Source: Fimbriimonadales bacterium | GTDB lineage: Bacteria; Armatimonadota; Fimbriimonadia; Fimbriimonadales; JABRVX01 | Direction of reading: 5' to 3' | Length of the DNA stretch: 46,595 nt | Assembly (NCBI GenBank): GCA_045862955.1 | Contig: BTVI01000025.1 | Coordinates: forward strand, 1 to 46,595 | Shown: positions 3,001 through 6,000 of the stretch, piece after piece | Layout: every line of letters begins with the position of its first letter | How positions within the stretch are numbered: the stretch's first letter is position 1 | Made by a program: the position numbers

Positions 3001-6000
3001 GGCGAGGAAAGTGGGCGTCTCAACGAGATGCTGGTCAAAGTGTCGGACTTCTATGACACCGAGGTAGCGCAAGCCGTCAAGGGTCTCACCTCGATGATCG
3101 AGCCACTGCTCATCGTGGTCATGGGTGGCATCGTCGGCTTCATCGCAATCTCGGTCATGACACCTATCTTCAAGCTGGTCAACTCGGTTCAATAGCGACC
3201 TGTTACAGCTCAGGCGTGCACAGGAAGTGTGCGCCGAGGCCCAACAGACCCCGGGCTAGCCGGGGGACCAAGGAGGAACATCACGTTGGGGGATTGCGCT
3301 CGAATCAGGATGGACCCTGAAGAGATGGTAGCGCTGTATTCACGGACCAAAGAGCCCGACTTGAGGGACGCCGTGACCTTGCACTACGCAGGGATGGTTG
3401 AACGCATCGCTCGTCGCTTCGCAGGATCATCGGAGCCGATCGAAGACCTGGCGCAGGTCGGTTTCATCGGCCTGCTCAACGCACTGGAGCTTTTCGACCC
3501 CAGCAAAGGGGTCAAGTTTTCCACCTACGCCACACACCTGGTGGCAGGAGAGATCAAGCACCACCTACGTGACAAGGGAAAGATCATCAAGGAGCCCGCT
3601 TGGTTGCAGGAGCTGAACCAGCGGATCAACCGTATCATCCAGTCTCTCGCGCAGGAGCTGGGACGTCAGCCAACGGCCGCGGAGATCGCCGCGAACATGC
3701 GCATGACCGAAGAGGCGATCACCGAGGTACTGATGACGCGGGACGTGTTCAAGGTGCTCTCGATTGACGGTGCGACCGACGAAGACGACAGTGACAAGCC
3801 CTACGACCTAGACAAGATGGAGCCTCATGAAGAAGCTACCTTTCAGCTTCCTATCGAGGACAAGATGGTTCTCGAGACCGCCGTGATCCACCTCAAAGAG
3901 GTGGAGCAGAAGGTGATCCATCTCTTCTTCTACGATGGTCTCAACCAGACGGAGATCGCCGCTGCGTTGGACATCTCCTGCAACTACGTGTCACACATCC
4001 TAAGGCACTCCGTTCAGAAACTGCGCAAGATCCTGGTAACAGAGGACCTCAAGGATCGTCAGTTGCGCATCCGTCACGCACCCGACAGCGAAAGCGACGT
4101 GATGGACGACCAGACCGGCCTCTACGGACCCGACTACTTTCGCTCGCGGCTGTCCGAGGAGATCCAACGCGCTTCGCTCGATGGCTCCAAGATGTCGGTG
4201 GCGATCGTTCGGTTCCACGGACTCGAACAGCTGCGCAGTTTCTACGGGGATATGACGGTTGGGGAGTTCCTCACGCAAGCGGGCACCGTGATCCGCGGCA
4301 ACATCCGGAAGCTCGACGTGCTGTGTCGCGAAGGCGAGTTCGCCTTTGGCGTCATCCTCCCTCACGTCGAGCGTATGCGGGTGGAGATAGACGCGCTCTT
4401 GGAGCAGAAGCTGGCCGAGTGGCTCGACCGGCTGTTTTCTGCGAAGGGGCAGGTCGGTTTTCGCGTCGGACGCGCGGACTTCCCAGACGACGGCTCGACC
4501 CTTCGCGAGTTGCTCGACACCGCCTCACGTGCGGCGGACTGGGAAGCCAGCCTCCTGCGGCAGGCAGCCTGACAACCGGAACCTGGATGGCAGGACCGCG
4601 CCACATGGCGCGGTCCTATCTTCTTGTCTTCTTCACGAACCCGAAGGACGCAGGTATCCATCCCATGCGCGGCCAAAAGCGGCTGGAGAGCGGGTTCCAC
4701 GGACAGTACACTAGCTCCCAGCGCTGTGCACCCTTCTTGGCCAGCTCGGCTGCAAGGGCGAGGCAGAGCGCCCGGCCAACTCCCCGTCCGCGATGCTTCG
4801 CGGTGGTGCCCACGGACCGCAGGAAGCCCATCCTGGCCTCGGGCAGCAGCAGGGACGGTCTAAGCATCGCATACCCGACCCGGCCATCGGCAACCGCGAT
4901 CACTTGACCGTCTTCCTCCGCATATAGCGAGACGCCGTTCACGTCGCGGATCACCTCCTCGCAACCTTTGAGTTGGCGTTCGCGCACGTTGGGATAGTCC
5001 GTACGTTGGGATGGCGCGCACTCGGCGTGGTAGCGCAGTTCCTCCAAGTGGCAGTCCACCACACGTTGGCCGTCTCCCGGTTTCGCAATCCGGATTTCGA
5101 CTCCCATGGGCGGTGCTGGCAGGTCACCGAGCGGCTTCGTGCGTACGCAGTGGGCATACGCGGGGTCGAAGCCGTGGCGGGCCACTAACGCCGCGGTCTC
5201 GGCATCACAGGCATGGAAACAGACGTAGGTAGCCTCTACCCTGCGTGCCCTCGCCGCCTCGTCCATGGCATCGAAGAGCTCCCGAGCGTCGCAGCTATCG
5301 GTCGGCCGAATCCACGCGACGTTCCACACGAGGCTCGTGCGAAACACGATCTCTTGGGCCGGATCGTCTTTGCGGAGGTTCCAAACGATGCCCTGAGCGA
5401 TAATGCGCCAGCCTGCGGAGTCACGAAGCGCGAGGGCAAGCCCCCCTTCATCCACGGATCGCAGAATCTGCGATTCGAAGTATTCGGTCAGTTCCGGCAG
5501 CACGACGAGGCGAGGGTCGCGTGCGGCGAGAGCCGATGCATAGGCGGTCCACTCCACCGCCGGTTCACGGGCCTGTCTCGCCGTGATCCGGACGAGTTCC
5601 ATGTTATGCCAGCGCCTTGCGCAGTAGATTCTCTCCCTCGGTGGCGAGACGTGCCGCTACCGACGCCTCTTCTGCCTCGGCGTAGATGCGCACGACCGGC
5701 TCGGTTCCCGAAGCTCTCAGCATCAGGAAGCGTCCCCCTTCGAGCTCGAAGAGGGTCCCGTCCATGCGGTTGGTTTCGAGTACTCCGAAACCACCCACTT
5801 CGGCAAGGCTCAACCCGTTTACAACGTCCCTCAGCGCCGCCATCTCCGAGCGCTGGAACTGGGCGTCGATCCGGTGATACCAGTGCGGCCCGACTTCCGC
5901 AAACACCTCCTCCACGAGCTGGCCGAGGGTCTTACCGCTCATCACGATGGCTTCCATCAGCAGCAGTGCCATCAGCATCGCATCACGCTCAGGGAGGTTC

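Follow-up and report, generated by a model that had tools for sequence, protein, structure and literature searches.

The window, that is, the whole stretch of 46,595 nucleotides that was analyzed (contig BTVI01000025.1 of the Fimbriimonadales assembly GCA_045862955.1), carries a gene in which a group-3 sigma factor is fused to a GGDEF domain that has lost its catalytic motif. The fusion is real, conserved, and, as far as appears, undescribed, a new arrangement of known parts that comes with a candidate regulon. Largely by analogy, and with somewhat more confidence than doubt, we read the protein as a one-component sigma factor for pilus and surface-motility genes whose activity c-di-GMP would lower by way of the attached GGDEF domain. 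The gene is divided as follows.

3286..4572, + strand: sigma-GGDEF fusion gene, encoding a group-3 sigma factor with a degenerate GGDEF domain, 428 aa (ORF, Pfam, NCBIfam, AlphaFold2 model, fold comparison).
3382..3795, + strand: sigma regions 2 and 3; PAW at about residues 104 to 106 is a signature of the family (Pfam; invariant alignment columns).
3889..4077, + strand: sigma region 4 and the helix of residues 232 to 264 (Pfam region 4 at 202 to 248; DSSP of the AlphaFold2 model, pTM 0.50).
4102..4533, + strand: degenerate GGDEF domain (Pfam E value of 2.4e-16; fold matches to solved GGDEF domains).

The reading frame is open for 428 aa from a TTG start codon, ahead of which AGGAGG lies at position 3271; the database gene call begins at the ATG at 3310 and gives 420 aa. 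Pfam places sigma region 2 at residues 33 to 99, region 3 at 109 to 170, and region 4 at 202 to 248, all above cut-off and with region 1 absent, which is the composition of a group-3 sigma-70 factor, and the GGDEF domain at 273 to 416. The best NCBIfam match is the SigB/SigF/SigG model TIGR02980, at 193.1 bits (cut-off, 234.35), and the cyanobacterial SigF model PRK07408 scores 167.5 bits (cut-off, 261). Since the score for the FliA/WhiG model TIGR02479 is also under its cut-off (125.9 bits; cut-off, 189.6), the fused sigma is not of the WhiG type. In the AlphaFold2 model (mean pLDDT of 87, pTM of 0.50), the sigma part matches Staphylococcus aureus SigB (8x6g; Z score of 14.4), and the GGDEF domain matches solved GGDEF domains with Z scores of 18.2 to 19.7, including that of PleD (1w25; rmsd of 2.6 over 152 aligned residues). 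The best 50 Foldseek matches are sigma chains only. By DSSP of the same model, the helix of residues 232 to 264 runs unbroken from the region 4.2 recognition helix to just before the GGDEF domain. A preliminary description of this DNA had proposed that a SigF/SigB-type sigma factor and a GGDEF domain are joined in one protein, and on this the ORF, the Pfam domains, and the fold matches agree.

The residues of the GGDEF domain on which our reading turns are these.

4168..4170, + strand: R295, the secondary I-site arginine equivalent to PleD R313 (offset of +18 to PleD chains 2wb4 and 9g85; kept in 64/65 orthologs).
4306..4317, + strand: R341-x-x-D344, the primary I-site, equivalent to PleD R359 and D362 (120/120, 64/65, and 53 and 57 of 60 homologs).
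4333..4347, + strand: erased A-site, with GEFAF replacing GG[DE]EF (catalytic motif in 0/120, 0/65, and 0/60 homologs).
4378..4398, + strand: R365 present, and L371 replacing the family's R371, equivalent to PleD R390 (homolog columns; one-gap mapping).

With GEFAF where an active diguanylate cyclase has GG[DE]EF, the protein does not belong among the active enzymes. The I-site of PleD, as excerpts of PMC7288161 describe it, consists of R359, D362, and R390 together with R313 from a neighboring domain; R371 was mapped onto R390 across one gap, from alignments to other solved cyclases. All four residues occur in 114/120 close homologs, in 60/65 phylum-wide orthologs (a count that leaves out family f6 and the unfused loci), and in 47/60 representatives of less than 50% identity (one of which is a false member). 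For comparison, 26 ordinary GGDEF domains were taken from six genomes of the Armatimonadota; the four residues are found in 7 of them by regular expression or 11 by alignment. RxxD alone says little, because 25 of these 26 carry it; at the level of sequence, the signal is RxxD and both arginines retained after the catalytic site was lost. Even in f6 forms that lack the DxLTG motif, RxxD persists in 5/6 long copies. The preliminary column counts were reproduced (R341, D344, and R348 in 120/120, with the commonest residue at positions 351 to 353 in 41, 26, and 51 of 120). R348 is not an I-site residue, and it is kept in 58/65 and 39/60 in the wider sets.

Nor is the I-site intact in the window's own protein, in which the third primary arginine is missing: R371, present in 61/65 orthologs, is L371 here. 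The 5/120 homologs without R371 are the same five that have R365, which is found in no other of the 120 aligned sequences. Since all five carriers are close kin of the window's copy, the loss of R371 and the gain of R365 are probably one event, and R365 may stand in for R371 in this lineage. With a GGDEF fold, a dead A-site, and the RxxD of R341 and D344, the domain shares these features with receptor-type degenerate GGDEF domains of the PopA, PelD, and SgmT kind, of which it is a candidate member, and on the pattern of conserved residues we consider it likely that the fused family binds c-di-GMP. Second copies of the fused sigma occur in two genomes (L043 at G071:C8, and another in G095); L043, the one that was read, lacks RxxD and has an altered region 4.2.

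The fusion was matched in 142 of 251 genomes of the phylum at an E value of 1e-58 or better (the match reaches the second domain in 141 cases) and is present in 24/26 genomes of its own order. Family f6 has a decayed form in 23 genomes (8 loci were read: 6 long, 1 short, and 1 cut by a contig end). In family f33, where 2 loci were read, the ortholog is unfused. Based on this range, the fusion is widespread rather than core, as it had earlier been called. In a scan of species genomes, the fused copies among the matches listed are titled Armatimonadota or lack names, except for two titled Actinomycetota, which nest beside family f8 in a quick tree, and the ESM Atlas clusters at 0.98 to 0.99 are from Armatimonadota. 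In the same tree, which contains no cyanobacterial SigF row, the fused clade has 99% SH-aLRT support and joins unfused, pilC-linked relatives, apart from canonical SigB. Those relatives bear the titles Vulcanimicrobiota, Atribacterota, and Obscuribacterales and likewise follow pilC. The simplest reading would be that a pilus-linked sigma factor gained its GGDEF domain once. In three Atribacterota-titled loci (L423, L425, and L430), two unfused sigma relatives stand in tandem after pilC, and L425 has a GAF-HD_5 gene before pilC.

Alternatively, the protein could be a general-stress sigma factor of the SigB kind, with a GGDEF domain that has become a relic and is drifting. The SigB/SigF/SigG model is indeed its best NCBIfam match, f33 lacks the domain, and second copies such as L043 decay. 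However, the score is below the cut-off of that model, the clade stands apart from canonical SigB, and the I-site has been retained across sequences of 30 to 45% identity while the A-site was erased. RsbW is absent as well: an RsbW-type match was found in only 5 of the 61 genomes of the order and in none of the other 56 (genome G273 is included as one no-match row). In the source genome, no short HATPase_c_2 protein of the RsbW/SpoIIAB type was found, either genome-wide or beside the sigma gene; the only four HATPase_c_2 matches lie in frames of 374 to 609 aa, which bears out the earlier statement that there is no RsbW/SpoIIAB anti-sigma factor. One stand-alone STAS protein is encoded elsewhere in the source genome. 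We consider a relic domain very unlikely.

With a putative receptor pocket within the sigma chain itself, c-di-GMP may act on the sigma factor directly, without a separate anti-sigma factor. The source genome has 4 GGDEF domains with an intact GG[DE]EF and 5 HD_5 matches. The proposal of a one-component c-di-GMP-sensing sigma factor is strengthened on some points (a four-residue I-site without an A-site, a genome that also encodes active cyclases and phosphodiesterases, and the rarity of RsbW) and weakened on others (L371, the uninformative RxxD, and a range that is not core).

The genes and elements ahead of the fusion link it to type IV pili and to FliA.

1918..1925, + strand: CCGACAAT, a -10 element of the FliA (sigma28) type located 66 nt ahead of where pilC starts and probably serving as promoter for pilC and the sigma gene.
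1984..3195, + strand: pilC/T2SSF platform gene, a paralog outside the pilB-pilT-pilC cluster, which is on contig C3 (Pfam T2SSF; NCBIfam PilC-type match below cut-off).

The window's pilC is 63 to 75% identical to its counterparts within the order and 43% identical to the C3 paralog. It lies directly upstream of the fused sigma in 44/65 orthologs, so the adjacency described earlier is common, but it is not universal, and 21/65 orthologs have no adjacent pilC. The common cluster among orthologs is secretin-pilB-pilT-pilC-sigma-pilin, and 7 loci also contain a GAF-HD_5 gene. Proximity to pilC also fits a role for the GGDEF domain as a protein-interaction or localization module that might dock, for instance, to PilC, to a cyclase, or to an adaptor of a protease, such that c-di-GMP, if bound, would alter the location or lifetime of the sigma factor and not its activity. 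As far as excerpts of the two sources go, the C-terminal GGDEF domain of SgmT sequesters SgmT spatially (PMC3509222) and PopA acts in proteolysis (PMC12564702); the fused protein has extra conserved surface residues on this domain (R288, E291, and E292), and L371 of the window's copy fits as well. Against such a module, surface conservation is highest at the four residues that contact the nucleotide, and an adjacent pilC is missing from those 21 orthologs. We consider such a module improbable and continue with the reading in which c-di-GMP acts on sigma activity.

Elements like CCGACAAT precede 25/29 loci in which pilC heads the unit, with 0 antisense, a pattern that was tuned after inspection. 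The element fits the sigma28 consensus as given in excerpts of PMC2532724 and also stands before flagellin and FlgM in the source genome, which suggests that FliA would transcribe pilC and the sigma gene. The source genome carries FliA, FlgM, and flagellar genes; its true FliA is on contig C16, separate from the fused sigma, and FliA is present in 26/26 genomes of the order. In two genomes, G147 and G209, the fused sigma, this pilC ortholog, and flagellin are all absent together, and in a hand-picked set a flagellin match is absent from 9/20 genomes without the fused sigma versus 0/10 with it. Exact pieces of the sigma gene, perhaps from transcripts, occur in three RNA libraries, as contigs with small shares that gave no start sites.

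Several other features of these loci and of the genome were recorded. In some f2 and f3 loci (L015, L017, L018, and L106), pilC is preceded by a palindrome that TTAGGTTTGA forms with its reverse. A search of 7 loci against Rfam gave no match. A sigma54 gene at 7012 to 8421 of the window (- strand), 2.4 kb downstream of the fusion gene, showed no link to it. The same short repeat occupies the contig starts at window positions 1 to 300 and at G000:C3:1-300 and is probably the cause of the assembly breaks. Genome G000 has 54 prepilin N-methyl motifs above the Pfam cut-off and five PilB-type ATPases.

The regions upstream of the major pilin genes share TGTKAA-N14/15-RTGGAANAA, a candidate output promoter. 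The strict motif has 134 sites in 88/251 genomes, versus 24 sites in 21 genomes for the reversed control, which is not composition-matched and is counted over genomes that are kin and not independent. Sites occur in 64/142 fused-sigma genomes (101 sites; control, 16), 9/23 f6 genomes, 4/20 f33 genomes, and 11/66 remaining genomes (17 sites; control, 2); because genomes without the sigma also exceed their control, the reversed control is weak. A looser version of the motif was unusable, its background being too high. Among 63 inspected sites (of the 101 in fused-sigma genomes), 33 adjoin pilin, flagellar, chemotaxis, or PilZ genes, with 25 pointing at fliE (7), fliM (3), flagellin (3), fliL (3), cheC (1), a PilZ gene (1), and pilins (7) and 8 antisense before flagellin; the remaining 30 either fall within coding sequence or precede genes that are unrelated or of unknown function. 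One representative of each target gene name was confirmed by Pfam, and the others were named by similarity. None of 14 inspected sites (of 17) in sigma-less genomes adjoins a motility-type gene. The 3 others are in G132 and G186 (93% and 77% complete), where the sigma was not found and the sites are like those of genus-mates.

Regions upstream of flagellin score at most 6.7 in 10 flagellated genomes without the sigma; among 10 genomes that have the sigma, an inverted site reaches a score of at least 11 in 5. Several results count against assigning the motif to the sigma. Scores of 12 or more are reached by untrained pilin loci in 11/26 cases with the sigma versus 3/15 without. No strict match occurs in the source genome, where the weight matrix, with 14 sites versus 9 at score 12, gives no excess on one strand across the genome. 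The pilin site of that genome, on G000:C2 about 92 nt ahead of the start at 41175, scores 18.4, the first of 1687 upstream regions, as a member of the training set. The motif is rare or absent in the fused-sigma families f8 (0/7), f10 (0/3), f17 (0/6), and f26 (1/12), which is 1 strict site in 28 genomes, and none of 9 inspected f6 sites is before a motility gene. In family f2, it is antisense at flagellin in 8 loci and lies only 10 to 19 nt before the fliL start. There the inverted motif interleaves with the opposite-strand, FliA-type flagellin promoter TAAA-N15-GCCGA, an arrangement that suggests mutual exclusion. The motif also precedes a conserved noncoding stretch of ~110 nt without an Rfam match, possibly a small RNA, in genus g28 (L242, L275, and L277) and, in its strict form, lies ~150 nt before a ParA-family ATPase gene in two f22 genomes (L283 and L284).

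The motif could instead be the operator of another factor, most likely a small GerE/LuxR-type protein, with the sigma still a c-di-GMP receptor for pilus genes. A conserved 91-aa protein with only a GerE/LuxR domain is encoded near the major pilin gene (G000:C2:39119-39394, - strand; loci L328 to L357); the candidate motif is ~50 nt upstream of its gene in f1, f2, and f3, with a FliA-type -10 further up in the source genome. The gene is present in the motif-strong families f1, f2, f3, f7, f9, f13, f16, f20, f23, and f30 and not in f8, f10, f17, or f26; the motif precedes it in 10/30 loci versus 1 antisense, and the occurrence of the motif in both orientations at flagellin would suit an operator. 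On the other side, two unlike halves around a spacer of 13 to 16 nt are promoter-like, and in G092 and G032 the motif stands at pilins or parA with no GerE-like match at an E value of 1e-18; in G092, which carries the sigma, the motif stands at two pilins, yet the genome gave neither a FliA nor a GerE-like match. We think a GerE operator unlikely. In excerpts of PMC2532724, the Bacillus subtilis SigB promoter is RGGXTTRA-N14-GGGTAT, the layout and geometry of which match those of the candidate motif. On balance, we incline slightly to the view that the motif belongs to the fused sigma, which probably switches on pilus and flagellar genes.

Other candidates were set aside. CCGAnAAT was rejected as a fused-sigma target, as it precedes flagellin and FlgM and FliA is present in all 26 genomes of the order, and TTAGGTTT was dropped as a GerE site, being the FliA -35 read backwards. 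GCAGGA-N16-CGAA, the strongest spaced motif in the genome (top dyad, 32 sites versus 3.5 expected, above the sigma70 dyads), was assigned, by the SigH consensus, to a SigH-like sigma gene on contig C22 (G000:C22:43752-44390, + strand) and not to the fused sigma; the SigH-like gene would have a very large promoter set genome-wide. After the known promoter types were masked, no further dyads stood out in the source genome, and scans for SigB-type GGG[AT]A gave no strand excess.

The mechanism that we favor would begin with transcription of the pilC-sigma unit by FliA, as the promoter motif suggests. The sigma part would then load onto RNA polymerase and read TGTKAA-N13..16-RTGGAA promoters, those of the major pilin and, depending on lineage, of fliE, fliM, fliL, flagellin, cheC, and the GerE-like regulator. 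The dead GGDEF domain, to judge from its conservation, keeps a full I-site, in which a bound c-di-GMP dimer may, as in PleD-type domains, cross-link or reposition the domain. Through the helix into region 4.2, this would take the sigma out of action, with the GGDEF domain replacing an anti-sigma factor. By analogy, inhibition of the fused sigma by c-di-GMP seems rather more probable than activation. A more far-reaching version is tentative and, to us, doubtful: the sigma would be the c-di-GMP receptor and motility master switch in much of the Armatimonadota, would act from TGTKAA-N14/15-RTGGAA promoters of the major pilin and early flagellar operons, and would form a loop with FliA; in one family, its reading of an exactly overlapping opposite-strand promoter would block that of flagellin.

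The comparisons that follow are with known systems as excerpts of the sources present them. RsiG-WhiG shares control of a group-3 sigma factor by c-di-GMP, and its targets in Rubrobacter include type IV pilus genes; there, however, a separate anti-sigma factor with an E-S-R-Q-D motif binds the ligand and its sigma belongs to the sigma28 clade, whereas here the site is a GGDEF I-site in a SigB/F-like sigma chain. Synechocystis SigF (PMC2532724) is a SigB-clade group-3 sigma factor for the major pilin gene pilA1, and its -12 core GGTAA resembles the GGAA of our motif, but it is without a GGDEF domain and its -35 differs. PopA, PelD, and SgmT (PMC12564702, PMC7288161, and PMC3509222) likewise combine a dead A-site with an intact I-site on a regulatory protein, although the partner is a receiver, a membrane/GAF domain, or a kinase and not a sigma factor. 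FleQ and FlrA (PMC12564702) are functional analogs, since c-di-GMP binds these motility transcription regulators and lowers flagellar expression; they are sigma54 activators that bind it via AAA+/REC domains and have no homology to the fused sigma. A full-text literature search, with subscription papers and supplements outside its scope and a mention in a census table therefore possible, found no sigma-GGDEF fusion, in agreement with the earlier searches.

In the literature searched, as far as the excerpts go, c-di-GMP otherwise reaches sigma factors only via a separate anti-sigma factor (RsiG) or acts on activators (FleQ and FlrA). If our reading is true, a sigma factor with its own receptor domain would mean that the motile-to-sessile switch can be wired in a new way, and with the candidate promoter this reading becomes testable with purified components. 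The reading would also provide a first model of how pilus and flagellar genes are controlled in the Armatimonadota.
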